In this document: positions 1-64,000 of the stretch, in pieces | Position numbering within the stretch: the first letter of the stretch is position 1 | Layout: each line of letters begins with the position of its first letter | IMG/VR virus record: IMGVR_UViG_3300017613_002264 | Coordinates: 1-64,000 of that record | Length of the DNA: 64,000 bases | Source of the DNA: a virus | Strand: one strand, 5' to 3' | Translations under genes and position numbers: made by a program | Notes under the pieces: model-generated | Database searches by the model: none | The model's input: only the letters and a program-made list of their open reading frames with translations | Told to the model about the DNA's origin: nothing

Positions 1-2
1 AT

Positions 3-350
3 GAACCTTATCAAAACGGTCCAAAGTTATTACCGATGAATGATAAAGGAAGTTTGACTACTCCAACATTCTCACCGGCAGGATGTGTCATCTCAAGTCC
101 ATGTTTTATAGTGGATGGGAACCACAATGATTTCTACGCAGATCAGCGTTGTCTCATGGATCTTTATGGGGTATATGCTTTGGCCTGCGATGGTGTTCAA
201 TCTGAGGATACAGTTATAATCGATGGTGATCGTTGCCGAGTATTTCAAAATGTACATCGGGTTACGGCTTATGACTTCTTTGCAGTACCAGAAGTTGAGC
301 AAACTACTACAACTACAACGACAAGTACTACAACTACCACAACAACCTAA
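3..350 (+). CDS. 3' part of a virion-module ORF entering from upstream of the window; C-terminal poly-Thr tail
   Basis: The frame is open from base 3, with no stop before the ATG at 36 used by the ORF track. It ends ...EVEQTTTTTTTSTTTTTTT-stop and directly precedes the tail genes. Confidence 0.5.
   Translation, partial: EPYQNGPKLLPMNDKGSLTTPTFSPAGCVISSPCFIVDGNHNDFYADQRCLMDLYGVYALACDGVQSEDTVIIDGDRCRVFQNVHRVTAYDFFAVPEVEQTTTTTTTSTTTTTTT
303..347 (+). repeat. poly-Thr coding tract (ACN)n
   Basis: Encodes TTTTTTTSTTTTTTT at the C-terminus of ORF 3-350. Confidence 0.95.
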
Positions 351-360
351 GGAGTAATCA

Positions 361-2504: not shown

Positions 2505-3117
2505 TAGTATAACAGGAACCGGAACTACTCAATTTTTTCCCATAGAACCGAACTGGGTAACTCGTCCGCGGTCAACTGTTTTAATGTCTCGCTTAATAGC
2601 AAAGAGAGAAGGAACAGTCGATGAGATGAATTCTATTACTCCAGACGTGCCGGTGAAGTTAGATATGGGATTCAGTGTTTTTAATAAAGAAGAAGAATAC
2701 AGTATCATTGACTTCTTTAATGATAGAAAAGGGATGGTCGAGAGGTTTTGGGTTGTCTGGCCTAGGCAACAGTTTATACTCAATAGGCTTCATACTTCTG
2801 GAGAAGCAACCCTTGAGTGTTATGGCAACTTCGCCGACTTACAATACCGAGGATATGAGAGAATAGAAATACTCATGAACAATGGAGATAGGATTATTCG
2901 TGAGGTAACTGGAACCTTTGGTGATGCAGATGAGACAAGTTTGCAGTTGGATTCTGGGCTTGATAGGGATGTAGGCCCGGGATACTATTTAAGAATATCT
3001 CGTCTTCTACTCGTTCGTTTTGGTTCTGATCTTCTCGATCTAAGAGCATTAACAGACCATGTAGGAGAAATTCCTTTTACTTTTGTTGAACTGGTTAATG
3101 AGTACGGAGATGTTTAA
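2497..3117 (+). CDS. tail protein, DUF2460 / GTA-g12-like (tentative)
   Basis: The N-terminus reads ..FFPIEPNW.. and the gene lies immediately upstream of the DUF2163-like, NlpC/P60 and gpJ-like genes. The start is ambiguous: TTG 2482 in the track, or GTG 2497, which overlaps the upstream TGA and has GAGGAG 7 nt upstream. Confidence 0.4.
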   Translation: MADSITGTGTTQFFPIEPNWVTRPRSTVLMSRLIAKREGTVDEMNSITPDVPVKLDMGFSVFNKEEEYSIIDFFNDRKGMVERFWVVWPRQQFILNRLHTSGEATLECYGNFADLQYRGYERIEILMNNGDRIIREVTGTFGDADETSLQLDSGLDRDVGPGYYLRISRLLLVRFGSDLLDLRALTDHVGEIPFTFVELVNEYGDV

Positions 3118-10185: not shown

Positions 10186-10197
10186 GGAGAATGAGTA

Positions 10198-10410: not shown

Positions 10411-10420
10411 AGGATTTTAA

Positions 10421-10693: not shown

Positions 10694-10737
10694 AGGAGAA
10701 CGTATAAACCAATAACTCACATAATTAGGAGAGGAGA

Positions 10738-26876: not shown

Positions 26877-29495
26877 TTACCATTCTTCCTTTTTATACCA
26901 TGATTGATCGATGCCTGTCATTTCTATTTCGCTTTTTAATGGCACGATGAGGAAATCATATCTTTCCCTTACCTTGTTTTCCATGTACTCGCACATGGCG
27001 TCTACTACTTCTATTTCTTCTTCAGGATGTATATTCCAAACTAACTCATCATGGATTTGAACAATGAGTCTACTTCTAAAGTATCGTTTCGAGTAGGCAT
27101 TTAGTTTTATGTATGACCATAGCAGGCAATGGAATGCAGTTGCCTGAATTGGAGTATTTACAATCATGTTAGGAGTGAGTAATCCTCTTCTTTGGTGGCC
27201 GAACATTGTCTCTATATACCCATGCTGTTGATAGAAGGCGATAGATCTTTGTTGCCATTCCCTTACCTCCGGAAACTTTTCCCAGAAGTTTTTCTCTACT
27301 CCTTTTACGTGGTTCTCAAATCCTTTGAAATCACTTTTACTTTGAATTACTCCTTCCTCAATGAGATGTCTCCATACAGGAATATCTTCGCCTGTTTTAA
27401 ATTCACTACATAAGTGCCAAAGGTTTCTGGCACATGTCACATAATACGAACCATAAAACTCGGGGAAGACAAATTGATTCTTAGTATAGAATCTTAAATC
27501 TTTTGTGATGGTCTCATCGGTGAGTACAAATATCTCTTCTGCTTGATCCCTATGCATATCGGTTGTCTCATCTTCTACATAGGCAATGAGGTTTTCATCT
27601 TTAGTGTAGCAAGCGATAATACGGACCTCCTGACTTCCATAATCGCCAAAGCCTAACCGGCAACCCAACTCAGGCTTGAATCCAGAGCGAGTAGACTTCT
27701 TGGCTTCTTCTTCTCTAGTAGGAACATTTTGTAAATTTGGATCACTGGAACTACTTCTATATGACCGAGGGATATGTAGATCAATGAAGGCATGTATATG
27801 GCCGTCTACAATTTCCTTCGTAATTTGATGCATGTAAGTACCCTTGGTTTTTTTCAACTTCTTCCACTCAACTAACTTCTTTGCAAAAACCACATTCAAT
27901 GACTCCAATACCTCGGCCGTCATTCTAGTATTGCCTTTCTCGGTTTTCTCAGTTAGCTTTACTCCCATTACATTTTTAAACAATTTGATTTGATCGTGAG
28001 ATGATCCAAGATTAATGTCTCGTTTATACTTCTTTTTGAATTTCTTCGCCCACTTGCTGTCCATCAATTTACCTTCTAACTTTTCAATCTTCTCACCTAG
28101 TGAGATATCCTCCTCAATGTAGTAGAGTTCATCGACCGGAAATCCCCTTAGTTGAGTATCCGAAAATGCAAGCAGGCCACGATGAGTCAAATCATATGCC
28201 CTTGATAGATCCTCACTGCGCTTGATTATACCGCGTTGCAAAAAGAAAAGGCTTCTGGTGATAGCGGAGTCAAGGCCACAATACATGAGTAATTCTTCAA
28301 GTGGAAACTCGCCCAATCTATTTCTACCAGTACCCGGCACTTCTTTCATGTATGGCTTTACTCTTTTATCGTAGCCCACAATACCGAAATGGATGTATGC
28401 TTGGAACTTCAAGCCAGTGTAGTCTTTCCTGTCATCGATTATATGAGACGCGTTCATGGTACACCACAACCAACTAACTACTCGTCTCATTTTAAAGGTT
28501 ACCCTACTCCATATATCCTCAAACTTTAAGTTTTGAGCCACCTTCTTTATATTGGGATGTTCGAGATATTCAACCACGTAAGATATTACTATTTCGTAGT
28601 CGTCATTATCCCAATGAGTATAATCAATAGGGAAGGAGAATGTCTCACGAGGAGTTGAAATACTCATACACCATATCTTTCTCATTGGATTGAAAGGCTT
28701 GACCGCAGATGTCTCATAATCGAAAGTAGAAATCACTTTTATTTTATCGGCCCTAGAGAAAAGATCATTGAAACATTTCTGCAGGGTGATCATGTCAGTT
28801 ACTATTTTTACTTTCTTCTTGAAGTTTATAAATTTAGGAGGCTCCAGATCCAACCATTCAACGGCTTTATCAAGGTCTCTATCAATCAACCCCTCTATAT
28901 TTTTATCATAGTAGACATACCCTCGCTTGGTTTTCTTTTTCGACCTGAGTAAAAAGGAGGGATGATACATAGGGACTATCCACGCCTTTGTCTTCTTATC
29001 TGGAATGCATAATCCTCGCCATCTTGAAATACTCAATCTGGAGAATCTTCCTAAGTAAAAAGACTCAATAGCAGATGCACCTACTAACCATATAAATTCT
29101 GGTCTGAGTTTTTTAATGAGGTTATCTACGTAATACTCTTTACAACACTTGATTTGTTTGCGCGTAGGTTTTTTATTCTTTACTGGCCTGCAATTGACGG
29201 CATTGATTTTCCAGAAGTCTCTTTCCAGATCCAGATCATGAGGTTCTAACTTCTCACGAAATAAACTTCCTGATGAACCAATGAATTGAGTGCCCGGGTC
29301 AAAGTATTGGTTCCCCTCATCTTCTTCTCGGCCGGGAGCCTCGCCAATGAGTAATACCTTTAGCCTTCCTTTGCCAGTGACCTTCATTTTAGGAGTCACG
29401 CAACCCTTCCACAATCCACATATCTCACAATGGGTTTTGGAAACACCTGAACCAGTAGGCTTCTTGACTTCCTTCTTAGAAAAGAATCCTTTCAT
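26877..29495 (-). CDS. polA: family A DNA polymerase with N-terminal family-4 uracil-DNA-glycosylase-like domain and 3'-5' exonuclease
   Basis: UDG-like: CEICGLW..C....GKG..KVLLIGEAPGREEDE.....G.SG.LF. ExoI: FDYETS. Polymerase: SSDPNLQNVP, FGDYGSQEVRIIA (motif A region) and VQIHDELV (motif C). Confidence 0.9.
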   Translation of the reverse strand: MKGFFSKKEVKKPTGSGVSKTHCEICGLWKGCVTPKMKVTGKGRLKVLLIGEAPGREEDEGNQYFDPGTQFIGSSGSLFREKLEPHDLDLERDFWKINAVNCRPVKNKKPTRKQIKCCKEYYVDNLIKKLRPEFIWLVGASAIESFYLGRFSRLSISRWRGLCIPDKKTKAWIVPMYHPSFLLRSKKKTKRGYVYYDKNIEGLIDRDLDKAVEWLDLEPPKFINFKKKVKIVTDMITLQKCFNDLFSRADKIKVISTFDYETSAVKPFNPMRKIWCMSISTPRETFSFPIDYTHWDNDDYEIVISYVVEYLEHPNIKKVAQNLKFEDIWSRVTFKMRRVVSWLWCTMNASHIIDDRKDYTGLKFQAYIHFGIVGYDKRVKPYMKEVPGTGRNRLGEFPLEELLMYCGLDSAITRSLFFLQRGIIKRSEDLSRAYDLTHRGLLAFSDTQLRGFPVDELYYIEEDISLGEKIEKLEGKLMDSKWAKKFKKKYKRDINLGSSHDQIKLFKNVMGVKLTEKTEKGNTRMTAEVLESLNVVFAKKLVEWKKLKKTKGTYMHQITKEIVDGHIHAFIDLHIPRSYRSSSSDPNLQNVPTREEEAKKSTRSGFKPELGCRLGFGDYGSQEVRIIACYTKDENLIAYVEDETTDMHRDQAEEIFVLTDETITKDLRFYTKNQFVFPEFYGSYYVTCARNLWHLCSEFKTGEDIPVWRHLIEEGVIQSKSDFKGFENHVKGVEKNFWEKFPEVREWQQRSIAFYQQHGYIETMFGHQRRGLLTPNMIVNTPIQATAFHCLLWSYIKLNAYSKRYFRSRLIVQIHDELVWNIHPEEEIEVVDAMCEYMENKVRERYDFLIVPLKSEIEMTGIDQSWYKKEEW

Positions 29496-30620: not shown

Positions 30621-31730
30621 CTATGTTCTTTTACTCAATCCAAAGCCTATTTTTTTCACCATCGCCTTCTTTTCAGGATCCATATAATCGGCTCCAGTTA
30701 TTTCCGCTTCTACTCGGTTTTTTATAATACTCACATTTGATTTATATAACTCCAACCCTACCCAACGGCGGTGCAACCTTTCAGCCGCCACTGCAGTAGT
30801 ACCACTACCCATGAATACATCAAGTACTCGGCAAGGTTTTATCTTCTTGGTTTTGCAGGAGCATTGTTTCTCCCATCCAACTGTTTCTCTATACTGCGCC
30901 GGTTCCCCATCTGCAAGGTCTACTGATGAACGTAGTAGTCCAATACCTCGCTCTTCTTTTTTGATGCGAGGCTTCCTTTTTAATTTGATCCTTTTAATCT
31001 TTCGAGTATATGGAGTTCCGCACTTGGCACAACATCCATGCTCGGATGTACCGGCCTTGATGCATTGAATAGGCAACTCTATAGGGAAGGTGGCCCAGTG
31101 TTTAAGATTCTTTTCCTTCTTATTACCCATGAGCCAAACGTCTCGAGGAAATGTACCGCGGGGAGTGAGTATTGCAAACTGGTCGTAATAATACTTCTCA
31201 TTCTTAGTTAATAAAAAGATATGTTCATGTGAAGACATGGGCCTATTCCTTACTGAGTTAGGCATGAAAGACTTTTTGTGCCAGATGATATCGGCCCTTA
31301 AATACCATCCCGCTTGTCTCATTGCAAAGGCGGTCAACCAAGGGATACCGAGTAGATCCCTTTTCTTTACTCCCGGTGCTTTCCTCGGTTCCTTTATTCT
31401 CGATACTCCAGATGATTGTCTTTTTCCACCCGGGTCGAAGTCACTTCCAAACAAGCCCGAGTCATTGTAGCAGTCGCCAAGATTCAACCATATAGTACCA
31501 TCGTCCCTCAATACTCGTTTGACTTTGCTGAATAGCTTTACTAGGTTGGCGACATACTCATCGGGAGTTTCTTCTTGTCCTAACTCGCCTTTGGTTTCCT
31601 CATCATCTAGGTCGTATGATCTTAGTCTCCAATAGGGAGGAGAAGTAATAACGGTCTGGATTGATTTGGATTTTACTTTTCGGATTGACTTGAGACAATC
31701 TCCTCGGAAGATTTTGCCGTGGGTTTTCAT
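30621..31730 (-). CDS. DNA methyltransferase, beta-class N6A/N4C (N6_N4_Mtase-like)
   Basis: Motif IV (VITSPPYW) lies near the N-terminus and motif I (DVFMGSGTTAVAA) near the C-terminus. Confidence 0.85.
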   Translation of the reverse strand: MKTHGKIFRGDCLKSIRKVKSKSIQTVITSPPYWRLRSYDLDDEETKGELGQEETPDEYVANLVKLFSKVKRVLRDDGTIWLNLGDCYNDSGLFGSDFDPGGKRQSSGVSRIKEPRKAPGVKKRDLLGIPWLTAFAMRQAGWYLRADIIWHKKSFMPNSVRNRPMSSHEHIFLLTKNEKYYYDQFAILTPRGTFPRDVWLMGNKKEKNLKHWATFPIELPIQCIKAGTSEHGCCAKCGTPYTRKIKRIKLKRKPRIKKEERGIGLLRSSVDLADGEPAQYRETVGWEKQCSCKTKKIKPCRVLDVFMGSGTTAVAAERLHRRWVGLELYKSNVSIIKNRVEAEITGADYMDPEKKAMVKKIGFGLSKRT

Positions 31731-32921: not shown

Positions 32922-34523
32922 CTAGTGATTGTCAAAAGGAGTATTGTACATCCATTCAGAATCGAAAACTGGATTTCCTATACCAAGGGCTTGAAGGGTG
33001 ATTACCTCTTTTCGCGTAATCTCGAAGTGTCTATGGTTTATCATTCCATATCTCATATACCCATTTGCCCTTTCCCGGGGCGTTTGGTTTAATGTAAACA
33101 TGGCGTCGCAGTGGGCCAATTTCCTCACATCTTCCGAGACATTTGTTTCACTCAGGCTTTCAATTTCAAAAGACTTTCGATTTCCTTGAGTCGCAGTGAC
33201 TACGAGACAATTGAACTCTACCGACAAGTTTTTTAAGTATTTCCATATATGGTCAACCCTGCCCCGTTCAGATAAAGTTCTCATCTCATCGGGTTCTAGT
33301 TGGATCAAATCGGCGTAATCCAATACCAATATATCTGGAGTTTTCTTTTTCGTTTTGGTTACTTCAATCATGTCGTTTCTTATGTTGGCAAGGGTTCCGT
33401 CAAATGAGTAAGACTTGGTTGTCAGGTCTCCTCCTCCGTGGATCTTAAAGTTTTTCATATGAGTAGAAACAATACGAGGAGTCATCTTCTTTGTTTTTAA
33501 ATTGTAATACCAAACGGCGGGAATGAACTTGTCTCTTATTTTTTGCTTCTCATGATTGCGACAGGCGGTGCATGGTTTATATCTCATCCGTGGTTTGAAC
33601 TCAGGTAGTATTAACTCGCCTTCATCACTCACTCCTATAGCAAGTTTTACTGGGTTCGTTCTTCTATCAAGTCGGCATGAACCATCTTGGTTACTGAGAC
33701 AATCGAAACAAGGCACTTTCGTCATACCGCCCTCATCACTCGTTCCTGTCATCATTTTATACATTCTTCTTGCTTGTTCCCGCGGCGACATTTCCAATGA
33801 GGCTTTGAATACAAATAAGCCTTTCCATAGTCCCTGCAGGCCTATATGATCAAGGTTCCATGACTTTCCTCTTTTCATCGGGGCGAGTATTGCTATCAAC
33901 CACTTGCGTTTCAACATACCGAGTAGTTCACCAAGGTCTCCATCACATTGTAGTAGTTCCTCGGTTCTATCCTCATCGGACGAATACTCATTGATAATAG
34001 CCTTGTTCATGGAGTCATGCATATCATCTACTTTATCGAGTCCAGTGAGACTATAATACCCGCCCTCCATATATAACTCCGTAAGTTTTTTCGCCCTATC
34101 AAACTTACCCGCTTTTGTAAGTCTACTCACGTCCTCAAGCATTACTATAATACCACGTTCCTGAAAATACTTATCCGCCTTCTTCAATAGGTATTTGTAA
34201 TTGAATTTCTTGCGGTAGACATACTCATCGGAAAGGTTTGATAGGAAAGCTTCTACAAGTAGTTGAGTAGTTGCAGTTAGGGATTCTTTTTCTAGTTCAA
34301 ATATAGTCTCTATTCTTTTCCTTGGTGCTTTGCCTTCTGAATCGAAATACTCAATACACCACTTCGTTATTATTGAGGAGTGATCCATCGCAAACAGTCG
34401 TGGGTTCAAATGGTCTCTTATTTTCTCCAAGAATTTGTGAGAGGTAATTATACCAGTGAGTATAAGTTTTTCAATTGAACTATCTACTAGTACTCGTCTT
34501 AGTTTTTTTCTTCTCATTATCAA
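32922..34523 (-). CDS. DnaB/gp4-family replicative helicase-like ATPase
   Basis: ILAPMKRGKS (Walker A), DILVLDYADLI (Walker B) and VVTATQGNR. A Cys-rich insert (CFDC...C...CTAC) lies in the ATPase domain. Confidence 0.6.
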   Translation of the reverse strand: MIMRRKKLRRVLVDSSIEKLILTGIITSHKFLEKIRDHLNPRLFAMDHSSIITKWCIEYFDSEGKAPRKRIETIFELEKESLTATTQLLVEAFLSNLSDEYVYRKKFNYKYLLKKADKYFQERGIIVMLEDVSRLTKAGKFDRAKKLTELYMEGGYYSLTGLDKVDDMHDSMNKAIINEYSSDEDRTEELLQCDGDLGELLGMLKRKWLIAILAPMKRGKSWNLDHIGLQGLWKGLFVFKASLEMSPREQARRMYKMMTGTSDEGGMTKVPCFDCLSNQDGSCRLDRRTNPVKLAIGVSDEGELILPEFKPRMRYKPCTACRNHEKQKIRDKFIPAVWYYNLKTKKMTPRIVSTHMKNFKIHGGGDLTTKSYSFDGTLANIRNDMIEVTKTKKKTPDILVLDYADLIQLEPDEMRTLSERGRVDHIWKYLKNLSVEFNCLVVTATQGNRKSFEIESLSETNVSEDVRKLAHCDAMFTLNQTPRERANGYMRYGMINHRHFEITRKEVITLQALGIGNPVFDSEWMYNTPFDNH

Positions 34524-36134: not shown

Positions 36135-36932
36135 TTATTTTGTGAATCCAAAGAGGATTTTAATACTACCCTCGACCTGCACTTTTACTCCCAATGTCTT
36201 CTCAAGCCCTTGTTTCATAAGGTCATAAAGGTCATTGGAGATTTCTTCAGATTCTTCTGCGTCCTCATTGAGTATTTCAATTACTTTTTTCTCGGTCTCA
36301 AGATCCGGTTGGTTCTCAGGTTCTACAGGAGGCTCATCGTTAAGGAATGAGTATTTCTTCATCCAAGGATACTTCTCGGTCAATGTATCATATGTGACCT
36401 TTTTATTTCGGCGGTTTGCAAGGTCGTATATCTCATCCGTGGTCATGTCGTAGGCTTCTTCTACAAGACCCCATGAGTAGATTGGTTTTTTACCGGCCGC
36501 GATATTCTTACGAAGCATGAGTCTTTGTAATGGGCTACGATATAGACCAGTGAGTATTCCCGGGATACCCAAGTCTTTCTTGTGGGTATAAATATTGAGG
36601 TTATCGTCTTCTCTGATTATGTCGTTAATTTCTTTTGCTCGTATTCTTCTTCCTGTCAATAGTAATGCGATTGTCTTCTTTTTCAAATTCTTCGATTTCA
36701 TGTTGTTCCTCCAATATTCACGATTTATTTGGCGTCTAGGTAGTAGAGTAGTTATTGTACTACGTCCATTTTTTTTACCTACTTTAGTTCTTGGACTATA
36801 ATAACGACTCGGCTCCTTCTCCTTTTGGTGGAAGTCTTTGAGTGATTCCTTCTTTTTGATATCGTCATCTTTCTCAATGAGATATTCGGTCAAAGCCTTC
36901 CCACCGACCGTAATACCGTTTTGTGCATTCAT
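36135..36932 (-). CDS. hypothetical protein
   Basis: 265-aa ORF coupled to the primase gene. No named motif. Confidence 0.45.
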   Translation of the reverse strand: MNAQNGITVGGKALTEYLIEKDDDIKKKESLKDFHQKEKEPSRYYSPRTKVGKKNGRSTITTLLPRRQINREYWRNNMKSKNLKKKTIALLLTGRRIRAKEINDIIREDDNLNIYTHKKDLGIPGILTGLYRSPLQRLMLRKNIAAGKKPIYSWGLVEEAYDMTTDEIYDLANRRNKKVTYDTLTEKYPWMKKYSFLNDEPPVEPENQPDLETEKKVIEILNEDAEESEEISNDLYDLMKQGLEKTLGVKVQVEGSIKILFGFTK

Positions 36933-37852
36933 AGTAGTAATCCTCTTATTGAGGAGATTGTTCTCATGTCTTGTTCATTAGGATCTCCTCGGTCTAGTTC
37001 GACAATTTCTACTTCCATAAAAGCAGACAATTTATTAGCGTACCGATACGCCTTTTCAATTGCATCCTCATCAGGTATAATAAAAACTTTTTTAATCCTC
37101 CTTTCTGTGAGTAGTAGTAATTGCTCATCGGTAATTAAAGTTCCAGACGCGCCTATTGCTCCTTTCCCTATACTCCATACATCTGTAACTCCCTCAACTA
37201 TAACGGCTTTGCGACCATGTACATTATCGATATTATAAAATGTACTCTTTATAGGTATGGCCGCTGATTCATTAGGACATGCGAGATATTTCTTCTCGGC
37301 CCTGTTGGTTATGTCTCGAGCAACAAAGTTGACTATATGGCCATTCAGGTAATATGGAATGATGATTCTGAATCGATATTTGCTTGTAGTATACACGGCC
37401 CTGATTTTATACTCATCTTTTAAATGTCTCAATGAGAAACCCCTACTCCTTATATATTTACGATGCGGCTTCGGAAACAAAGAAGAGGAAATGTTGGGGA
37501 GTATGCCTTTTCCGGCTGGAGACCGGCTGGAGGCAGAAGTGTAGGAGGACAAGTCCGTGGAACCACTTCCTAGGGCATACTCCCCGAGGTCTAATTCTTC
37601 TACTACATCTTTCGCATGACCCCAACTGCATTCGAGTATTTCTCTTATCAACTTTACTATACTACCTGTCTCACCACATTTCCAACATGAGAATTTTGTC
37701 TTGTCAGGAGTCACGCCAAGGTGGTTCAAGTCGTCATCGCAAAAAATGCAATTAAGACCAGTCCACCCTTTACTCACATTCTCACCTTCGGTAGAATATT
37801 CAATACCGTTATCTTCAAGCCACTCTATAAAATCTACCATTATTTGATCCAT
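36929..37852 (-). CDS. dnaG: DNA primase (Zn-finger plus TOPRIM)
   Basis: CIFCDDDLNHLGV....KFSCWKCGETG, then VIVEGVTDVWS and FIIPDEDA (TOPRIM E and DxD). Confidence 0.8.
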   Translation of the reverse strand: MDQIMVDFIEWLEDNGIEYSTEGENVSKGWTGLNCIFCDDDLNHLGVTPDKTKFSCWKCGETGSIVKLIREILECSWGHAKDVVEELDLGEYALGSGSTDLSSYTSASSRSPAGKGILPNISSSLFPKPHRKYIRSRGFSLRHLKDEYKIRAVYTTSKYRFRIIIPYYLNGHIVNFVARDITNRAEKKYLACPNESAAIPIKSTFYNIDNVHGRKAVIVEGVTDVWSIGKGAIGASGTLITDEQLLLLTERRIKKVFIIPDEDAIEKAYRYANKLSAFMEVEIVELDRGDPNEQDMRTISSIRGLLL

Positions 37853-40168: not shown

Positions 40169-40221
40169 GTTTCCTCCTCGGTCTAAATTGTTAATATAAA
40201 ACTACTACATAAGTATAATCT

Positions 40222-40264
40222 CCAATGAGTACTACGAATGATTACTCACTCGTAGTACCGATGA
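40222..40264 (-). repeat. intergenic hairpin element, copy 1
   Basis: + strand: CCAATGA GTACTACGA atgattactcac TCGTAGTAC CGATGA. Lies 3 nt downstream of the stop at 40268. Confidence 0.9.
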
Positions 40265-40267
40265 TAA

Positions 40268-40510
40268 TTATACCTCAACTACTCGGCCCTGATGATCATC
40301 ACCATAAAACCCTCGAATAACTTCACGGTAGCAAATGTCTATCATCCGTTCAGCTTCTTCCTTTGTCTCATACTCATAAGGTTTTTCGTCTTTACCATTG
40401 GGCTTAATACTCACCCACTCATTGTTCGTGTTAGGTGTCTTCAACTGCATTTGCCATGCCATATAATACCTCCTTACATCCTTATGATATTGATTTCCGC
40501 CATTCCCCAC
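40268..40510 (-). CDS. hypothetical protein
   Basis: 80-aa ORF. The stop is followed 3 nt later by hairpin copy 1. Confidence 0.45.
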   Translation of the reverse strand: MGNGGNQYHKDVRRYYMAWQMQLKTPNTNNEWVSIKPNGKDEKPYEYETKEEAERMIDICYREVIRGFYGDDHQGRVVEV

Positions 40511-42082: not shown

Positions 42083-44740
42083 TTAACTCAGTACCGCCTT
42101 GGCGTTCTTCTTAATTGTTTTCGCTATTGAAGGAGTCAGCACCTTGCAAAGATCCTTAAGTTTGGCCTTCGCTATAATACCGATTGTTGTGAATCCCTTA
42201 TTATAAAGAGCAATTGCTCTTTTCCCGCCGACCATTTTGATTTTGGTCAAAGGAACAATTTCCTCGGAAACGCCATACTTAAATCTCAATGGCAATGTCT
42301 CCCAGATTTCACTTTCCCACAAAGCGTATTGAGTATCGATCAATTTGAGTGCTTGATTTATTCGTTGGATATCCCATATCAATTGACGTTGGAGACCCTT
42401 CAAAACATCAGGCACTTTCTCTTTTCCAGTGAGTGAGTAATGTAAAGCAATTGCTCCGCGCACTGAATTAATACTCGGGCGAATATCGAAGTCATTTGTC
42501 ATTGTACTCACAAAGTCACTGACCTCATTATATATTTGTTTTTGTTCGTATGGCAAGGCGTTCATGGGAACGTCGCCAACTGCCCAAGCGAGTAAAGCAT
42601 CATTCGTTTTGTCTACGTTAAAAACTTTATCGAAGTTTTTATACCACGCATAGACATCTGAGGGATGGAAGTAAAGCCAAGCACAGACCCGGCCTAGGCC
42701 GGTCGGGCTTATACGAAGACCATCGCCTTCGATCATTTCCATCTCACTGTATGAATTGAGTAGATGCTCACCTTGTTCTTTACTCATTGAGTTTTCCCCG
42801 GCCTGTAACGATGCCAGACTTCTGCCGTACCATTGGAGAAGTGAAAGGCTATCTTGAATTGTCTTTGTCTCAATTTCGGCAATGACATGGAACGGCATAA
42901 AATTATCTAGCACTGATAATACCGGCCTTGGGTTTGCAAACTTGTCTCGCCATGTAGATGTCTCATATGGCGGGATGAGAAGATAAACAAAACCTTCTTC
43001 GTCAATACCATAACGGCCCGCACGTCCGGCCATTTGTATGATATCAAGTTCGTCTACTTCGTTAATACCACGATGTATTCCTACTATGATAACGTTTCTA
43101 GCAGGAAGGTTTCTTCCCCATGCCAAAGTAGAAGTACTCACAAGAATTCTGATACCATTTTCTCGATCAGAAAACTTTCCTTCTACTTCCAACCTATCGG
43201 CAAGTTCAAGGTCGGCAGAATGAAAGTGAGCATTTTCACCTTCTTCCTGCAACCGCTTGACAAGACGACGGCCGGAACCTTTGTCATGTACGAAGATAAG
43301 GAACTTCTCTTTTGGTTTACTCATTGCAATTGCTATCGATGAATTTATTTTAACTGCCTGAGTTGCCCAGTAATCTTCCTGGCCACTTCCATAATACGCC
43401 GGAGTATACTCAACAAAATTATAATTGAGTTCAACCGGCCGCCATGTAGAAAAGACTACTCGTGTAGCTTTACCGTTCAACTGTTCGAGCCATGTTGCCA
43501 ACTCATTACAGTTGGGCATTGTAGCAGACAAGAAAAGTATTCGCGCCTTTTTATTAATAGAGGTAAATCTCATAATACCGGTCTCAACGGCATGACCTCG
43601 ATCAGTAGTGAGTATATGACTTTCGTCAACTACTACAAGCCCGGTTTGTTTGAGCCAGTAGTTTTTCTCAGACTTCATACGTCGAGTCCTTGAGTCGCAC
43701 ATTTCAGAAGTCATAACAATAATATGAGCATTTGAAAGTTCCTTCATTCGCTTTTCAGATAAAGTATAATCACCAGTGAGTATACTTATATTGTAATCAG
43801 CAAACCGAATCTTCCAATCCTCATATTTTTCCTGAGTCAAGGCCTTGAGTGGAGACAAGTAAATTACTCGCTTACCTTTACTCAAAGTCGCATCCATCAA
43901 TAGCTCCGCACATACAGTTTTACCGGCAGAAGTATTTGCTCCGATTATAAGATTGCCGTCCTCATTTGCATAAGGTAGTACCTCAGACTGAACCGGGTTG
44001 AATTTAGGAAATGAGTATTTGAATGGTTTGTACTTTTTGGTACTAACCAGTTTAATATCATTTGATTCATTTACTACCGGCTCATTGATTATATCCCTCA
44101 TTTCTTCGATGGATCTTCTTTCTTCTTCTTCAGTGAGTATTTCTTCTTCGGCTTCAGTGAGTATTTCTTCTTCGGCCGATCTATCAACCCACTCATCTTT
44201 AAAATAAGGATCATGTTTAAGTACCGTTGCTTCAAAAGTATTACGTCCCTTGGGATTCTTCTCGCCCAATACCCACGCCAACTGTTTATCAGAAAGAGTA
44301 TTACGTTCTTCTACTTGTTCAAGTAGAGAAGTTGCAAACTCAGACCAGTTAACAGCATCATGAGAAAGAATCGCCTTAACGTATGGAATATCAATGTCTA
44401 TAATTTCCAGAATATGGGCTTGATTATAGAACTCATCAATACGAGACTTGAGACGTTCGCCAATTGAAGTGGCTCCTTCTACTCGGAGTATCTTCTTGCC
44501 TTTACCAATAGGTCTATTGTTTACCTTATCCCAAAATACTACTCGGATAGCATCACTGCCAATCCGCCGGGTTACACCGGTTCTAATGTCGATAGTTGAG
44601 TAAACGCGAACGTCTACTTTATCGGAATTACTCGGTGTTTGATAAACAACTTCCTTGCAGTTAGGAACTTCTACTACATAAAAATTACGCGGCAGATGGT
44701 TCTCGAACTGCTCCTGTGTTAGTGTTACGAAGTTACTCAT
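42083..44740 (-). CDS. Ski2/Hel308-like superfamily-2 helicase with unassigned ~230-aa N-terminal extension
   Basis: GANTSAGKT (I), VVDESHIL (II), LSATMPN (III), TSTLAWGRNLPA (V) and MAGRAGRYG (VI). Confidence 0.8.
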   Translation of the reverse strand: MSNFVTLTQEQFENHLPRNFYVVEVPNCKEVVYQTPSNSDKVDVRVYSTIDIRTGVTRRIGSDAIRVVFWDKVNNRPIGKGKKILRVEGATSIGERLKSRIDEFYNQAHILEIIDIDIPYVKAILSHDAVNWSEFATSLLEQVEERNTLSDKQLAWVLGEKNPKGRNTFEATVLKHDPYFKDEWVDRSAEEEILTEAEEEILTEEEERRSIEEMRDIINEPVVNESNDIKLVSTKKYKPFKYSFPKFNPVQSEVLPYANEDGNLIIGANTSAGKTVCAELLMDATLSKGKRVIYLSPLKALTQEKYEDWKIRFADYNISILTGDYTLSEKRMKELSNAHIIVMTSEMCDSRTRRMKSEKNYWLKQTGLVVVDESHILTTDRGHAVETGIMRFTSINKKARILFLSATMPNCNELATWLEQLNGKATRVVFSTWRPVELNYNFVEYTPAYYGSGQEDYWATQAVKINSSIAIAMSKPKEKFLIFVHDKGSGRRLVKRLQEEGENAHFHSADLELADRLEVEGKFSDRENGIRILVSTSTLAWGRNLPARNVIIVGIHRGINEVDELDIIQMAGRAGRYGIDEEGFVYLLIPPYETSTWRDKFANPRPVLSVLDNFMPFHVIAEIETKTIQDSLSLLQWYGRSLASLQAGENSMSKEQGEHLLNSYSEMEMIEGDGLRISPTGLGRVCAWLYFHPSDVYAWYKNFDKVFNVDKTNDALLAWAVGDVPMNALPYEQKQIYNEVSDFVSTMTNDFDIRPSINSVRGAIALHYSLTGKEKVPDVLKGLQRQLIWDIQRINQALKLIDTQYALWESEIWETLPLRFKYGVSEEIVPLTKIKMVGGKRAIALYNKGFTTIGIIAKAKLKDLCKVLTPSIAKTIKKNAKAVLS
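44129..44176 (-). repeat. perfect 24-bp tandem duplication inside the Ski2-like helicase gene
   Basis: TTCAGTGAGTATTTCTTCTTCGGC twice (44129-44152 and 44153-44176). Encodes AEEEILTE twice. Confidence 0.9.
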
Positions 44741-49326: not shown

Positions 49327-49338
49327 AGATTACTCCTT

Positions 49339-49367
49339 TACTCAGCCGCCGAAATAAATTGTTTAAT
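49339..49367. repeat. right arm of inverted repeat bracketing ORF 49060-49326
   Basis: TACTCAGCCGCCGAAATAAATTGTTTAAT. Two of the three mismatches become G-U pairs only in the minus-sense RNA. Confidence 0.85.
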
Positions 49368-50379
49368 AAATTATAGCAGGCAGTGAGTAGTTCACATTGA
49401 CTTTCCTAGGTCTTAATATGCCCAGTACTATGCAATCCAAACAACCCACTACCCATGCTATAACGGCCTATCCATGAATTACTCATTAGACAATACCAAC
49501 ACGTTTCGCCCTCTAGTATATTTTTATATTGAGACTACTGTATTGGCGGAAATTTAATGAGTAAAACACTTCTAGTACCACGGACTTTATAGGGCCGACT
49601 TTCGTCTTTTCCGCTACCGCGATTCTACTCACTGCGAATTTACTATAGCGGTCAATTTTTCATGCTCAATTTTTAGACATTACTATCATGACCATTGCAT
49701 TTCAATTCGGTACGCCTACAGTGTTTACTCGCCTGCCGTTCCCTAGAGATTTTGGAGGTGCGGGATTATGAACTAAACCACCTAAGGAGGAGGAGGGCGG
49801 TGGATTTATTTTGTCCTAACGGGTTATGGCATTTGATTACTCATTCAGTTGGATGAATTATGCCGTCGGGAGTATCATGTAGGATTTCGTTTTTGAATCG
49901 TGCAACCTTTGTATGTAGTATTTTTCCGCTGATGATCATTCCCTACATACCGAGTAGTAGTTGCCATATACTCGACGTGGCGAATTTTGTTTCATTAAAG
50001 TCTCGCTACCACGATTAATTTTTTATTGGGATATTTAAAACCCCTTCCGACATGGTATTGGATTTCCATTTCGCCTACATCAATTATTAATGTCTACATC
50101 AAAAGACGATGCATCCTATTGCTCAGCGGTTATCAAAATGAGTAGTACTCATTAAGGAATGTTTTCCATACCTAGAAAGCCACCATGTCAGGTGCGGATG
50201 TTTTGAACCGGCCAGCTCCAGAGGGGATTTTGAAAAAATGAGTAAAACAAAATACTCGCAAAAGCCCGTGGGCGGCGGCCCCAACCAAACAACCGAATAT
50301 GTAAAAGAACTCAAAATCAGTGCATTTGTAACATTTTCAGGGACTTAAGTCAACCCCTTTTTTTCATGGGGAAGCCTCC

Positions 50380-50401
50380 AGGCCCAGAGTTGGGCTTTTT
50401 T
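50380..50401 (+). terminator. weak intrinsic-terminator-like hairpin on the + strand inside the ORF-free region
   Basis: AGGCCCA gagt TGGGCTT followed by a T-run (tttttt). The stem is short. Confidence 0.3.
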
Positions 50402-50671
50402 CACTCCTAACACGTTGAATTTATTGCATAAAATAGGGGCAAAATAAATGCAAAAAAAATGAAAAAAAGTGCGTTTTTTACCTTTCTAAGAGCATGATTT
50501 CATTGGGAAAAATGGCGGGTGTAGGTAGGTGATTTTATTAGGGAAAAGGAGTACCACAGGGTAGGGAATTAGCGGAAAATGGGCAAAAAAGGGCGATTTT
50601 AGCGGCTCTACTCATTTTTCGCCCATTTCTGGCCATATATAGCGGAACTACTCATTCGTCAAATAATGGAA

Positions 50672-54434: not shown

Positions 54435-54714
54435 AACTATCACCGGAGCCCAACGCAAGGCTCGGAAAATTAATATCGCGGTCGCAAGGAAAGCAAAGAA
54501 GAGGAAAATTGCTTTCATGGGCAAGGGCCGTACTTTTCGATCCGGTGATAAGATAACTGTCTCAGGAAAGAAGGGAACTGTCATACCAAGTAAATCAATG
54601 CAGGCCTATGTGTTCAGGGCCAAGGGCTCAGTAAAGAAGGCGAAAAGACTCGGATTGAAATCTACTAACTATGATAGGCGTCTTTCCGGCATCGATATGA
54701 TGTTTATTAAATAA
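54385..54714 (+). CDS. small basic protein, RAATKGLRP family, paralogue A
   Basis: MAGKRSRAATKGLRPSKTITGAQRKARKINIAVARKAKK... Its 5' end overlaps the YkgJ-like gene by 50 nt. Confidence 0.55.
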   Translation: MAGKRSRAATKGLRPSKTITGAQRKARKINIAVARKAKKRKIAFMGKGRTFRSGDKITVSGKKGTVIPSKSMQAYVFRAKGSVKKAKRLGLKSTNYDRRLSGIDMMFIK

Positions 54715-54726
54715 GGAGAATTACTC

Positions 54727-55053
54727 ATGGCAGGCAAACGATCACGAGCGGCGACTAAGGGACTCCGACCGAGTAAAACTATTACTGCTTCGCAAAGGAA
54801 GGCTCGTAAGTTGAATATTGAAGTTGCTAGGAAGGCGAAGAAACACGGCAAGTCGGCGAGTCAAATAAAATCCAAGCTGAAAAGCGGGGCATGGAAAAAG
54901 GGAGGTAGTAGTTATTTGAGATCGAGTGAAGCGGCTTACTACCTACGAGAAAGAGGTCTTGGTCGCAGTAAATCAGTATCCCGGGTCAGAGCAATTAAAA
55001 GAACCGAGGGGCAAGCAAAACGCCTTATCAAAGCCGGTGTTTTCAAACCATGA
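54727..55053 (+). CDS. small basic protein, RAATKGLRP family, paralogue B
   Basis: MAGKRSRAATKGLRPSKTITASQRKARKLNIEVARKAKK... GGAGAATTACTCATG start context. Confidence 0.6.
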   Translation: MAGKRSRAATKGLRPSKTITASQRKARKLNIEVARKAKKHGKSASQIKSKLKSGAWKKGGSSYLRSSEAAYYLRERGLGRSKSVSRVRAIKRTEGQAKRLIKAGVFKP

Positions 55054-60591: not shown

Positions 60592-61341
60592 ATGTCAAAT
60601 GTAACGCCAAAATATAAGGTTGGAGATGAGGTATGGTTTTGGGATCCTATAGATAGCCCGAAAGAAATTGTTGGAACGCATATAGCAGAGGTTCACTTCC
60701 GTTTAGCAGATGAGACATACTCATATGAGTTGGTTGACTATGTGCATCAGTCAATTAGCACTGTTCTGTTCCCTGAGGCAAACTTATACTCAACATTTTT
60801 AAAAGCGAAAAATGCTTATGAGGGTCATCCTGTCGAGGAGCTTATTGGTAGCGGTGAGGAATGGTATAATAAGGATTGGCAAGACGTTACTGATTTAAAG
60901 GCTTTTCTCATTCGTATGCCTCAAGTCAGTGAAGGCGGATTATTTGAAACTCATTGGAAATATCTTCTCGGTGCTGAGGGAGAATGCTCAATAGCAATTT
61001 ACTACGCCCCAACCTTTACCAGTCTTGGAACGCCAATGAGAATTTGGAATACCCATGGTGGTGGACCTCAAACTGGATATTACTCACAGTTGTATGAAGA
61101 TCCTGTTATCACTGATAATGGTGTCCTTATCTACCGAGATATTATGGGATCCGGTAGAAAAAATGATATGGGATATAGACTCAAAGGTAATTTCTTTCTT
61201 GAACAAAACAGTATCTATATAATGATTGTAGATAAAATAAGGGCAGGAGGACGTTCTTGGTTTGCTTGGGAATGGAAGTGGACCGAAGATTTACTTTCTG
61301 GTTATATAGTTCCTTGGACGACCACCACTACTACTTCATAA
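60592..61341 (+). CDS. virion-module protein, paralogue 2, short Thr tail
   Basis: 249 aa with ..IYYAPTF..GSGRKN..G.FFLEQNS...W.WKWTEDL... Ends WTTTTTS-stop. Confidence 0.5.
   Translation: MSNVTPKYKVGDEVWFWDPIDSPKEIVGTHIAEVHFRLADETYSYELVDYVHQSISTVLFPEANLYSTFLKAKNAYEGHPVEELIGSGEEWYNKDWQDVTDLKAFLIRMPQVSEGGLFETHWKYLLGAEGECSIAIYYAPTFTSLGTPMRIWNTHGGGPQTGYYSQLYEDPVITDNGVLIYRDIMGSGRKNDMGYRLKGNFFLEQNSIYIMIVDKIRAGGRSWFAWEWKWTEDLLSGYIVPWTTTTTTS
61321..61335 (+). repeat. 5-Thr C-terminal tail tract
   Basis: Tail of ORF 60592-61341. Confidence 0.9.
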
Positions 61342-61353
61342 GGAGATGAGAAA

Positions 61354-64000
61354 ATGGTGAGGAAACGAAGAGTGAGAAAACCGAAAAAGGTTAAGAAGAA
61401 AAAGTCCAAACGAGTGGTTGTCCCAAAAGCAAAAACTACTCGCCAGCAAGCAAGATTTATGACCACGAATAAGCGAGTATTGAGAAAATTCGGGCGTATT
61501 ACACATAGGACTGGTGCCCATGGTAGTAGGCAGCGTTGGAAAGACCCAGTTGGCGCAACGACTACCACTACTACGACCACAAGCATAAGTACAACTACTT
61601 CTCTCCCTCTGGTTACTACGACAACGACAACGACATTGCCGGTTACAACTACTTCAACTACAACGACGTTGCCAGCCACGACAACCACTACGACCACTAC
61701 GTTGCCAGTCACTACTACCACTACTACGACTACGACAACGACCACAACTACTACAACCACTACGACTGCGGCACCTCCGGCTCCGGTGAGTACTTTGTTT
61801 ACTTGTGGTGAAAGTGATCGAGGTCAAATTGGACATGGAGATCTCGTTAGCCGTAGTAGTCCTACTCAAATTGGAGCAGACACAGACTGGGATGATGTTT
61901 CAGTCGGCTTTGATTATATGACAGCTATTAAAGATGGTGAACTCTACTCATGGGGATATAATAATTGGGGAAGTTTAGGTCTTGGAGATGTTACTAATCG
62001 TAGTAGTCCAGTACAAGTTGGATTACTCACTGATTGGAAATCTGTCTGGAACGGAAGCAGTGCGTCATCGGCTTTAAAAGATGATGGAAGTCTTTGGATG
62101 TGGGGGTATAATCAGGATGGAGAACTTGGATTAGGAAATGCTGGAGCTGGTACTTATAGATCATCGCCTGTTCAAGTTGGAGCACTTACAGACTGGTCAA
62201 AGGTTAGGCCAGGGAAAGGTGTCACTTTAGCAATTAAAGACAATGGAACCTTATGGACTTGGGGTAGTAATTCAAATGGAGGATTCGGTTCAGGGGAACC
62301 TACATCAACTAAATACTCATCTCCTGTTCAAGTAGGCGCATTAACTACTTGGGCTGATTTGGCAGTTAGTCACCAATCAAATACTTTTTGTGCAGCAGTA
62401 AAGACTGACGGAACACTCTGGACTTGGGGTGAGAATTTCTATGGCCAGTTAGGACATAATAATAGGACTGATATTTCTCTTGCTACTCAAGTTGGAGCAC
62501 TTACAGACTGGGCAAAGGTTTCTTGCGGGGATTATCATCTTCTCGCTATCAAAACAGATGGTTCATTATGGGCATGTGGTTCTGGTCAAGCAGGATGTAC
62601 AGGATTAGGCCATACTAATAATGTCTCATCTCCAGTACAAGTAGGCTCGGATACAGACTGGGATGATGTTGCGGCAGGAACTTTTGTTTCTCTCGCTATC
62701 AAAACTGATGGAAGTGTTTACTCATGGGGTAGTAATAATAATGGTGAACTTGGACAAGGTGATACTACCGGAAGATCAACGCCAGTACAAGTTGGATTAC
62801 TCACTGATTGGGCGGTTATTTCAACTGATGGTACTGCGTCGGCATTTTTAAGCGTGATTCCCATAACCACTACAACCACTACGACAACTACAACCACTAC
62901 GACCACTACGTTGCCAGTCACTACAACCACTACGACTGCGGCACCTCTTGTTGAAACAACCTTGTGGGCTTGTGGAGATAATTGGGATGGTCAATTAGGC
63001 CAAGGCACAAGTGGGAACACCGATGTTTCCTCACCCGTACAAGTAGGTGCATTGAGTAATTGGGAATCTATTAAAGTTAGCGGAAACGGCATAAGTCAAT
63101 TAGCAATTAAAGACGGTGAACTCTGGGCATGGGGAGCAAATACCTATGGCCAATTAGGCCAAGGAAATATAACTTCATATTCCTCTCCCGTGCAGGTTGG
63201 AGCAGGAACAGACTGGGCAATAGTTGACATAGGTAGTAATGGAGCAGTACTCGCTATTAAAGATGATGGAACCTTATGGTCATGGGGGAACAATGGCAAT
63301 GGAGAATTAGGACAAGGTAATACTACTCATCTCTCCTCACCTGTTCAAATTGGTTCTCTTGATACATGGGAATCAGCAATTGCTTTCTCTTCATCTTGTT
63401 ATGCTATCAAGACCGATGGAACCCTTTGGGCATGGGGTCGTAATAGCGAAGGTCAATTAGGTCAGGGTGAGAACAATAACAAATACTCATCTCCTGTACA
63501 AATCGGTGCGTTAACTACATGGGCAAAAATAAGTAAAGGCAACTCAACTTGGGCTCATTTTATTAAAGACGATGGAACCTTGTGGGCTTGTGGTGCTAAT
63601 GGATATGGAGTACTCGGTACAAATAGTATTACTCCTTACTCATCTCCAGTACAGATTGGAGCAGATACAGACTGGGCTGATGTTTTCTCAGGCACATATC
63701 ATTCCATCGCAGTCAAAACAGATGGTTCACTTTGGGCATGGGGCAGAAGTAATTATGGTCAATTAGGACAAGGAGATGAGACTACTCATTCCTCACCTAT
63801 TCAGGTAGGATTACTCACCGATTGGGAACAACCATCGGTGGGATCATATTCAAATCTTGTTATCAAAACCGATGGTTCATTATGGGCATGGGGAAACAAT
63901 GATCAAGGTCAGTTGTGCCTTGGTAATATTACTCCTTACTCATCTCCAGTTCAAGTAGGAGCAGATACAGACTGGTCTTATGTTTCTGCGGCAGATGCCT
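61354..64000 (+). CDS. RCC1-repeat (beta-propeller) protein with basic N-terminus and two long Thr-rich linkers; 3' end beyond the window
   Basis: This ORF is not in the supplied track. I translated frame 1 from the ATG at 61354 (AAGGAG 8 nt upstream) through to 63999 and saw no stop across 882 codons. It has at least 13 blades of the pattern DG.LW.WG.N..GQLG.G......SSPVQ(V/I)G...DW. Confidence 0.85.
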   Translation, partial: MVRKRRVRKPKKVKKKKSKRVVVPKAKTTRQQARFMTTNKRVLRKFGRITHRTGAHGSRQRWKDPVGATTTTTTTTSISTTTSLPLVTTTTTTTLPVTTTSTTTTLPATTTTTTTTLPVTTTTTTTTTTTTTTTTTTTAAPPAPVSTLFTCGESDRGQIGHGDLVSRSSPTQIGADTDWDDVSVGFDYMTAIKDGELYSWGYNNWGSLGLGDVTNRSSPVQVGLLTDWKSVWNGSSASSALKDDGSLWMWGYNQDGELGLGNAGAGTYRSSPVQVGALTDWSKVRPGKGVTLAIKDNGTLWTWGSNSNGGFGSGEPTSTKYSSPVQVGALTTWADLAVSHQSNTFCAAVKTDGTLWTWGENFYGQLGHNNRTDISLATQVGALTDWAKVSCGDYHLLAIKTDGSLWACGSGQAGCTGLGHTNNVSSPVQVGSDTDWDDVAAGTFVSLAIKTDGSVYSWGSNNNGELGQGDTTGRSTPVQVGLLTDWAVISTDGTASAFLSVIPITTTTTTTTTTTTTTTLPVTTTTTTAAPLVETTLWACGDNWDGQLGQGTSGNTDVSSPVQVGALSNWESIKVSGNGISQLAIKDGELWAWGANTYGQLGQGNITSYSSPVQVGAGTDWAIVDIGSNGAVLAIKDDGTLWSWGNNGNGELGQGNTTHLSSPVQIGSLDTWESAIAFSSSCYAIKTDGTLWAWGRNSEGQLGQGENNNKYSSPVQIGALTTWAKISKGNSTWAHFIKDDGTLWACGANGYGVLGTNSITPYSSPVQIGADTDWADVFSGTYHSIAVKTDGSLWAWGRSNYGQLGQGDETTHSSPIQVGLLTDWEQPSVGSYSNLVIKTDGSLWAWGNNDQGQLCLGNITPYSSPVQVGADTDWSYVSAADA
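61558..61767 (+). repeat. 70-codon Thr-rich linker with repeated T(n)-LP(V/A) units
   Basis: TTTTTTTTSISTTTSLPLVTTTTTTLPVTTTSTTTTLPATTTTTTTTLPVTTTTTTTTTTTTTTTTTTT in the RCC1 ORF. Confidence 0.95.
62866..62937 (+). repeat. Thr-rich linker between the two RCC1 propellers
   Basis: TTTTTTTTTTTTTTTLPVTTTTTT. Confidence 0.95.

Follow-up and report, generated by a model that had tools for sequence, protein, structure and literature searches.

Background

Short words dispersed through genomes have been described in several systems. The DNA uptake sequences (DUS) of Neisseria, the uptake signal sequences (USS) of Pasteurellaceae and the word HIP1 are present in hundreds to thousands of copies, on both strands, by way of synonymous choices and with dialects that differ between lineages. 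Stoperators and operators (Cluster A mycobacteriophages, P1 C1) are dispersed protein-binding words, some of which lie inside genes. Primases start synthesis at short words, which are GTC for T7 gp4, GTT or GCT for T4 gp61 and CTG or CTA for DnaG. Nick words are private to a phage and co-evolve with one of its enzymes, while Chi-rich lambdoid phages (LLS, MD8; PMC12315714; Bobay et al. 2013, PMC3784561) have accumulated a short word far above chance, within their genes. We describe here the pentamer TACTC, with its reverse complement GAGTA, in an uncultured phage whose genome, G000, is a whole 83,017-bp IMG/VR virus record (IMGVR_UViG_3300017613_002264); "the window" stands for the stretch presented here, that is the first 64 kb of this record (positions 1 to 64,000).

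The word of G000 can be set against each of these systems. DUS, USS and HIP1 are 8-12 bp long, belong to cells and serve competence or are tied to a methylase or to repair, whereas ours is a 5-8-bp word of a lytic-type phage and is about 5-8 times denser. Stoperators are 13-17 bp long, follow the direction of transcription and are found in 17-36 copies per genome; in G000 there are hundreds of 8-bp sites which follow no orientation rule. Unlike Chi, which is the host's word and has an orientation bias of about 7:1, the word of G000 is 15 times denser, strand-symmetric, evenly spread and private to its lineage.

Results and discussion

An excess of TACTC which codons do not explain

By exact counting, the window contains TACTC 316 times where base composition predicts 78.9 (4.0-fold) and GAGTA 217 times where it predicts 59.5 (3.6-fold), and these two words rank first and second for over-representation among the 1024 pentamers. 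A first-pass annotation, made by a model from the letters of the window, had proposed such an excess from hand counts of three segments (15 and 9, 13 and 12, about 11 and 7 copies in the two orientations). The exact counts are 16 and 9, 13 and 13, 11 and 7, and the excess proved stronger than it had claimed. In the whole genome, 409 copies of TACTC and 264 of GAGTA add up to 673.

We compared these counts with codon nulls built on the 110 open reading frames (ORFs) of a mechanical call. When synonymous codons were permuted within the ORFs, the sense strand retained 98.1 ± 8.7 copies of TACTC and 125.3 ± 8.4 of GAGTA, for 322 and 280 observed (z of 26 and 18); when the order of the codons was shuffled, 84 and 99 were left. 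Codon-preserving shuffles, which the first-pass annotation had named beforehand as a possible refutation, therefore did not reproduce the counts (98 and 125 against 322 and 280), and they fall short by z of 18 to 39. The enrichment is present in each of the three codon phases, in agreement with the same annotation. Among the slots which the protein sequences permit, 322 of 848 (38%) are filled by TACTC and 259 of 802 (32%) by GAGTA. Codon usage and protein sequence are thus ruled out as the cause by the synonymous shuffles, and the excess is a signal in the nucleic acid.

The letters around the pentamer matter as well. One-letter variants of TACTC are found at about the expected level, and TACTC itself is in excess only with A or T at position -2 and A or G at position +1; with C or G at -2, or with T at +1, there is no excess. 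This means that the real unit is the 8-bp word W-N-TACTC-R. The first-pass annotation had noted that the pentamer often extends to (A/T)TACTCAT. The 8-bp word has 486 copies in the genome, of which 385 are in the window (229 on the + strand, 156 on the - strand). Within coding sequences it occurs 241 times in sense where the codon null gives 36.8, and 175 times in antisense for 35.8, that is 5- to 7-fold on both strands, and the preference for W at -2 and R at +1 is identical for the copies of either strand. Its commonest form is TTACTCA. After the word has been masked, the near-cognate T-N-CTCA is still enriched 1.4- to 1.8-fold. The same flanks in both orientations, together with the shuffles and with a density which is twice as high in non-coding DNA, bear out the earlier suggestion of a signal at the level of DNA or RNA rather than of codon usage.

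An even field on both strands

The 533 pentamer copies of the window (316 on the + strand, 217 on the - strand) form a field from 1 to 64000. Their spacing is near Poisson, with a mean gap of 123 nt and a coefficient of variation of 0.96; we searched for a helical or a dimer spacing and rejected both. We likewise rejected patchiness or foreign islands: the enrichment ratio is about 2-4 in nearly all genes longer than 450 nt, every gene module included. The only long gap, of 1,137 nt, lies over the gene 31831-32736, because the codons of this low-complexity gene, rich in Asp/Glu and Lys, cannot spell the word. Pentamer density is 14.8 per kb in non-coding DNA and 7.7 per kb in coding DNA.

G000 has three gene blocks, on the + strand (1-14556), on the - strand (14557-53050) and again on the + strand (from 53051), in which the sense and antisense enrichments are 5.5 and 5.9, 6.2 and 4.6, 7.0 and 6.3. 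A polarity along the genome was considered, since raw counts favour the + strand in all blocks, and was rejected, as the two strands do not differ in their ratio to the codon null.

A nicking or packaging word had also been suggested, and the distribution makes this a poor fit. Known nick words (R/GCGCRGG in T5, CGACN5CCTA/CTCCGG in phiKMV, TACT/RTGMC in tf and LUZ24) have 5-17 copies, on one strand only, with 14-17 in tf (PMC3517423). The letters TACT are common to the tf word and ours, and tf-like phages, like G000, carry an amidoligase, a glutamine amidotransferase, direct terminal repeats and convergent gene arms. However, G000 has 409 and 264 copies on its two strands and we saw no core-gene homology to LUZ24-like phages. 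We rejected the nick-word reading on copy number and strandedness; cutting at all 673 copies would break the genome into pieces.

Cultured Vibrio phages have a word of their own

No cultured phage is close to G000 (the best portal identity is 31%), and a DNA-level search of a phage collection found no near relatives. The cultured analogues are Vibrio phage vB_VpaS_MAR10 (Mardecavirus, NC_019713.1) and KF4 (MF754114.1). The replication module of G000 is laid out as in MAR10 (clamp, PolA, clamp loader, RecA, Mre11-like), and the three phages have in common, at 22-34% identity, the primase, DnaB, PolA, clamp, clamp loader, SSB-like protein, RecA, flap nuclease, TerL and three tail proteins.

The palindrome TTASTAA has 294 sites in MAR10 and 286 in KF4, where the reversed control has 9 and 8. 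In the coding sequences of MAR10 it is found 210 times for 24 ± 5 under the codon null, about 9-fold, and 202 of 317 synonymous opportunities (64%) are used. MAR10 and KF4 share 77% nucleotide identity, which is also the average at the flanks of the sites, and their 7-mers are conserved in just 24% of cases overall and in 32% when matched for composition. Of the TTASTAA sites, by contrast, 67% are fully kept and 14 more differ by a swap of the central C/G only. Hence, we concluded that individual TTASTAA sites are under purifying selection. The form TTACTAA is one letter away from TTACTCA, the commonest form in G000, and TACT is also the core of the word of another contig, L027 (see below). 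A link between the two words rests on this similarity and on the shared core genes. A literature search on the words and on Mardecavirus repeats found nothing relevant, and the saturation of cultured Mardecaviruses by TTASTAA appears unreported.

The conserved sites bear on a further account, according to which the word has no reader and is a side effect of restriction avoidance, of biased codon pairs or dinucleotides, or of a mutation or repair drive that depends on sequence context. Repair drives have been invoked for the HIP1-like words of cyanobacteria, and a mirror effect of avoidance can indeed be seen for another motif, the excess of CCSGG (+114 in MAR10, +38 in G000) reflecting the deficit of CCWGG (-116 and -61). 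For the word itself, an excess of about 380 copies cannot derive from the 100-180 or so avoided sites, which have different synonymous alternatives. The one-letter neighbours, at about 1-fold, are not depleted as sources would be, non-coding DNA is the densest, and the sites of MAR10 and KF4 are kept in place above composition-matched controls. We therefore regard a word without a reader as highly improbable.

Other words were examined in this connection. CCCGGG is 5-fold over the codon null (24 for 4.7), with 25 sites in the genome (for example at 2976, 6278, 7303, 31789 and 36559) and no extended consensus. CCSGG/CCCGGG was rejected as a second word, being mostly the mirror of CCWGG avoidance.

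Related contigs change the word, control phages lack one

The same analysis on relatives, which the first-pass annotation had called for, showed that several lineages are saturated with words of their own. For each genome we applied the same test and report the top strand-symmetric word. The contigs nearest to G000 (portal identity of 45-76%) have their own words instead of that of G000. In L024, an 84-kb contig (JAAUXZ010032130.1, 84.4 kb), CTACA/TGTAG is enriched 2.4-fold, with the extended form W-CTACA-T, and TACTC is at 1.2-fold; in L027, an 83-kb contig (Ga0164310_10000021, 82.9 kb), TACTA/TACTT is at 2.0-fold with the same W at -2. The word of L031 is CTACA, and that of L032 and L033 is ACAGG (2.3- to 2.5-fold). 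In the genes which they share with G000, TACTN stands at 13 of 63 G000 sites in L027 and at 4 of 25 in L024; positions are thus mostly unconserved, which means that sites turn over.

We also noticed that L032 and L033 (JAAUXZ010088342.1, JAAUXZ010094613.1) are nearly devoid of N-CTC words: TCCTC occurs 0 times for 11 expected, TGCTC once for 12 and CTCAT 3 times for 16. This suggests the avoidance of a CTC-containing site, the opposite of what is seen in G000.

Word saturation is not general among phages. The top word reaches just 1.5- to 1.6-fold in T7 and T5, 1.3- to 2.0-fold in 26 loci of at least 15 kb each from bacterial assemblies with a related terminase, and at most 1.74-fold in Edwardsiella phage ZHS, phage DP SC_6_H4 and Bacillus phage YungSlug. 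In five bacterial metagenome-assembled genomes (MAGs) with related terminases the word is at or below control level.

It is very unlikely, in our opinion, that the word is read by a host factor, be it as a Chi-like word (RecBCD/AddAB), as an uptake or "self" tag, or as the site of a nucleoid protein, with different hosts for the relatives. MAR10 grows on Vibrio, whose Chi word is the enterobacterial one. Chi-rich lambdoid phages do exist (PMC12315714; PMC3784561), and different words in related phages of one sediment assembly could reflect different hosts. However, the five MAGs speak against it, and TACT-type words recur across habitats, in Vibrio phages and in marine-sediment contigs. Moreover, the Chi-rich phages, which lack recombination genes, have one site per 1.9 kb, oriented 20:3 (LLS) and clustered toward one end (PMC12315714), while G000, with a RecA-like and a flap nuclease gene of its own, has one site per 123 bp, evenly spread and equally enriched on the two strands. 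A Chi-like word was accordingly rejected on orientation, on clustering and on the phage's own recombination genes. The site of SlmA, GTGAGTACTCAC, whose half-site is the word, is never present whole: there is no match at fewer than 2 mismatches, and the 12 at exactly 2 are mostly single half-sites, so that this candidate was rejected too.

A common density

The densities of the different words are much closer to each other than chance would have them. There is one site per strand every 247 nt in G000, 248 nt in L024, 268 nt in MAR10 and 264 nt in KF4, while the chance expectations, one per 928 nt in G000, 934 in L024 and 7,954 in MAR10, spread over about 8.5-fold. Each of these lineages has come to a density of about one site per 250-270 nt on each strand. 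In T7, the four primase words taken together occur once per 199 nt per strand, for one per 265 nt by chance.

We can envisage that the whole lineage, from the Vibrio Mardecaviruses to the sediment phages, holds a private word of 5-8 bp at a set-point of about 1/250 nt per strand. A core enzyme of replication or recombination with an unusually long sequence requirement would co-evolve with the genome, the word drifting between TTASTAA, TACTW, TACTCR and CTACAT and the genome being rewritten each time. We consider this general scheme a real possibility, though less likely than not.

The primase as the favoured candidate reader

We infer that the word is read by a phage-encoded protein acting along the whole DNA, and that the specificity of this protein and the genome co-evolve. 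Among the proteins common to G000 and MAR10, the primase is the only one from a family with an established, built-in sequence specificity. By analogy with T7, our most likely reader is the DnaG-type primase of G000 with its DnaB-like helicase, a choice which we make tentatively and which is more likely wrong than right. The primase gene (36929..37852, - strand) encodes a CHC2 zinc ribbon and a TOPRIM domain, with weak matches to both Pfam Zn_ribbon_DnaG and DNAG_N, a match to TIGR01391 dnaG (E 2e-15) and 26% identity to the MAR10 homologue (at 45059-46183 of MAR10); its putative partner, the replicative helicase, is encoded at 32922..34523 on the - strand (phrog_19, E 5e-35), the helicase of MAR10 being gp061.

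Under this hypothesis the primase would treat 5'-TA-CTC-3' in the same way as T7 gp4 treats 5'-NN-GTC-3': the 3' C would be left uncopied (the "cryptic" base) and a pppAGUA primer would start opposite the T. The words of G000, L027 and MAR10 agree in TACT, the part that would be copied into the primer, and differ in their 3' flank (C-R, W and A-A). Such a stringent start word of 5-8 nt would be too rare by chance (1/930 nt in G000, 1/8,000 nt for TTASTAA), and selection would fill the genome until start sites matched the chance frequency of T7's four words (about 1/200-270 nt). Sites would be needed on both strands because recombination-dependent replication uses either strand as lagging template.

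The comparison with T7 gp4 (GTC; GGGTC, TGGTC, GTGTC, TTGTC) shows a short asymmetric word with a T-C end, an enzyme of the same zinc ribbon and TOPRIM family and a similar density. The word of G000 has five sharply defined letters ending in T-C, as T7 sites do, a resemblance which is one of shape only. In T7 (L019) KKGTC is found 163 times in sense for 124 ± 9 under the synonymous shuffle (1.3-fold) and is at 1.1-fold on the other strand. The T7 words, mildly enriched, reach their density by chance, at 1.1- to 1.3-fold over the codon null, whereas a single word is enriched 5- to 7-fold in G000 and 9-fold in MAR10 and, unlike the T7 words, fills a third to two thirds of the synonymous opportunities. 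An 8-nt primase word (TTTGGTTA/GTG) is known for the prim-pol of NrS-1 (PMC8718748).

Several points weigh against the primase. Its assignment proceeds by elimination and resemblance. ZHS and other phages have homologous primases and no word, so that the presence of the enzyme is not sufficient. The word of MAR10 is palindromic, and at 14 sites the central C/G was swapped without loss, as would be expected for a symmetric reader of double-stranded DNA; the palindrome needs the extra assumption that a self-complementary word serves both strands. The word CTACAT of L024 fits a start pattern ending in T-C poorly. Finally, with Okazaki fragments of 1-3 kb there is no obvious need for sites as close as 250 nt.

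The same palindrome would suit another reader, a nuclease for which the word would be the cleavage or loading site on recombination or replication intermediates, for instance a RuvC-like Holliday-junction resolvase. Before packaging, branched concatemers would have to be cut, and an enzyme with a long consensus would require sites within reach of branch migration, on both strands; about one site per 250 nt suits such a search. The consensus of E. coli RuvC is W-T-T-S. TTASTAA consists of two inverted, overlapping TTA-S, which have the form of this consensus, cutting would be possible across either axis, and the central C and G can be exchanged without loss of the site. A RuvC-family protein (PF02075, 24.5 bits; gp079 in MAR10) is encoded by MAR10 and KF4 but by none of the three word-free cultured phages, and G000 has genes for a RecA-like protein (23009-24055, - strand; UvsX-like, PF00154, E 7e-27), a 5'-3' flap nuclease (21873-22736, - strand; PF02739) and a helicase of the branch-migration type. 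However, the word of G000 is asymmetric, the correlation with RuvC comes from one genus, and neither RuvC, RusA nor endonuclease VII was found in G000 with Pfam models, with a profile of MAR10 gp079 homologues, with hhalign against four ORFs, or with PF02075 at E<=10. On balance we think a resolvase unlikely. It can be noted that G000 is without a recognisable Holliday-junction resolvase despite its RecA-like and flap nuclease genes; one of its uncharacterised ORFs may be a new one.

We give equally little credence to an abundant phage protein that would bind double-stranded DNA and coat the genome, the word being its docking site, in an architectural, condensing, shielding or global regulatory role. 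The strand-symmetric enrichment with the same flanks in both orientations, the graded specificity revealed by T-N-CTCA (1.4- to 1.8-fold after masking) and the palindromic word of MAR10 speak for such a protein. As candidates G000 offers four small, strongly basic paralogues next to the terminase genes and the acid/basic protein of 31831-32736, and MAR10 a ParB-like protein. Yet the sites have no spacing or helical periodicity, and close pairs show no more than a weak deficit; the word is asymmetric in G000; and no candidate is detectably common to G000 and MAR10. The small basic proteins had been proposed as readers from the outset, but they have no recognisable sequence-specific fold and gave no sign of sequence specificity.

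A last enzyme to be considered is the orphan methyltransferase encoded at 30621..31730 on the - strand, which had likewise been named as a possible reader and whose dense methylation of the word would mark or shield the DNA. That it is a genuine beta-class N6-adenine/N4-cytosine DNA methyltransferase stood up (PF01555, E 1.5e-38, with distant matches to CcrM and MboIIA); its part as the reader did not fare so well. In its favour, G000 carries the gene in intact form, and methylases of the beta class, of type IIS and of type III typically read asymmetric 5-bp words (GAAGA in the case of MboIIA, a distant structural relative). The specificity of methylases also changes fast, which would fit the turnover of the word. 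On the other hand MAR10 and KF4, the cultured relatives with the same phenomenon, are more intensely saturated and have no homologue by tblastn, nor is a methylase annotated between 30 and 78 kb of MAR10. Enzymes of this family abound in phages (of 8,000 candidates scored, 7,428 are homologues at E<=1e-20), while word saturation is absent from all tested phages outside the lineage. A protective methylase has no reason to multiply its own sites. Moreover, the five-fold avoidance of AGCT, GCWGC and CCWGG in G000 points to DNA that is exposed to restriction. All this leaves the methyltransferase a distinctly improbable reader.

The avoidance itself is marked in both phages. AGCT is found 45 times for 223 expected, GCWGC 18 for 80 and CCWGG 19 for 80 in G000, with a milder deficit of CTAG and GCGC; in MAR10, GGCC is found 0 times for 171 and CCWGG once for 117. 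Hence both G000 and MAR10 are open to attack by type II restriction, and a global hypermodification of their DNA is improbable.

If a phage enzyme, such as the primase that we favour, does force a third to two thirds of the synonymous positions open to its word, few of the non-coding constraints known from virus genomes would be as strong. We would then have an undescribed, strong and measurable constraint on the synonymous sites of phages, and the word would be a sequence signature revealing the specificity of an unstudied replisome or recombination enzyme. This matters for models of codon usage and for synonymous rates; for host prediction from k-mers, since the word belongs to the phage and not to the host; and for the design of recoded or synthetic phages, where removal of the word could cripple the phage. 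As the phenomenon is stronger in Vibrio parahaemolyticus phages which are easily grown (the MAR10, KF4, PG288 group), it is testable at the bench now.

Sites at start codons and in intergenic DNA

The word is frequent around start codons: 25 of 109 starts have it in the spacer or in codons 1-3. The spacer between the Shine-Dalgarno (SD) sequence and ATG is filled by the word at 54709..54729 on the + strand (AAGGAGAATTACTC-ATG), and likewise at 56440, 58961 and 55071. In the other orientation, across the start codon, a gene of the - strand starts with ATGAGTA at 44734..44740, as do those at 15108, 17486, 17903, 35613, 46301, 1404 and 54099. These four and eight starts had been listed in the first-pass annotation, and all 12 coordinates are right. 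The frequency of the word in spacers and first codons follows from the fact that non-coding DNA is twice as dense. The association is best read as the use of an unconstrained SD-ATG spacer as an open position for the word, since the word is found there in either orientation.

The ORF-free stretch 49327..50671 contains 18 pentamer copies, 13 per kb. An inverted pair, ATGAGTAGTACTCAT, lies at about 50139-50155 and three direct copies of CTACTCAT at 50600-50680.

An intergenic hairpin of the - strand, with a 14-bp stem and a GUAA (GNRA) tetraloop, is repeated at 40215..40275, 41070-41130 (near 41096), 44800-44860 (near 44827) and 47960-48020 (near 47987). The first has one GAGTA and one TACTC, and as RNA the hairpins are predicted to fold at -27 to -31 kcal/mol. 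The word had been placed in the loops of these hairpins; the hairpins do contain it, with GAGTA at the border of stem and loop and TACTC at the 3' end of the stem. Each hairpin is followed by a near-identical ribosome-binding cassette, CAAGGAGGACAA(A/C/T)-ATG, which precedes at least 6 genes.

Gene layout and further observations

The G000 record has a 121-bp terminal repeat. The structural genes of the window comprise tail genes, the terminase small and large subunits and the portal. For replication it has a family A DNA polymerase (26877..29495, - strand) with a clamp-like gene (29495-30535) on one side and a clamp loader gene (25572-26480) on the other, an order also seen in MAR10, and, besides the DnaB-like helicase and the primase, an SSB-like protein and two superfamily 2 (SF2) helicases. 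The RecA-like, flap nuclease and beta-class DNA methyltransferase genes complete the set, and there is a cluster of amidoligase, glutamine amidotransferase and gamma-glutamyl cyclotransferase. No Rfam family and no tRNA was found in the window. For the ORF downstream of the primase, the ESM Atlas gave weak winged-helix leads alone (<0.8).

A glycosyltransferase/sulfotransferase island ends with a gene at 14023-14556 (+ strand) which resembles Methyltransf_24 and O-methyltransferases (E 1.5e-15); its product probably methylates a sugar and not DNA. The SDR gene of the sugar island was searched in 185,579 genomes and gave no clue to the host.

Finally we must note the gene 31831-32736 (- strand), which is placed between the methylase and DnaB genes and is without a family match. 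Its product of 301 amino acids has a nearly pure Asp/Glu run of about 75 residues followed by a Lys-rich basic half, and could be a DNA mimic or a histone-chaperone-like protein.

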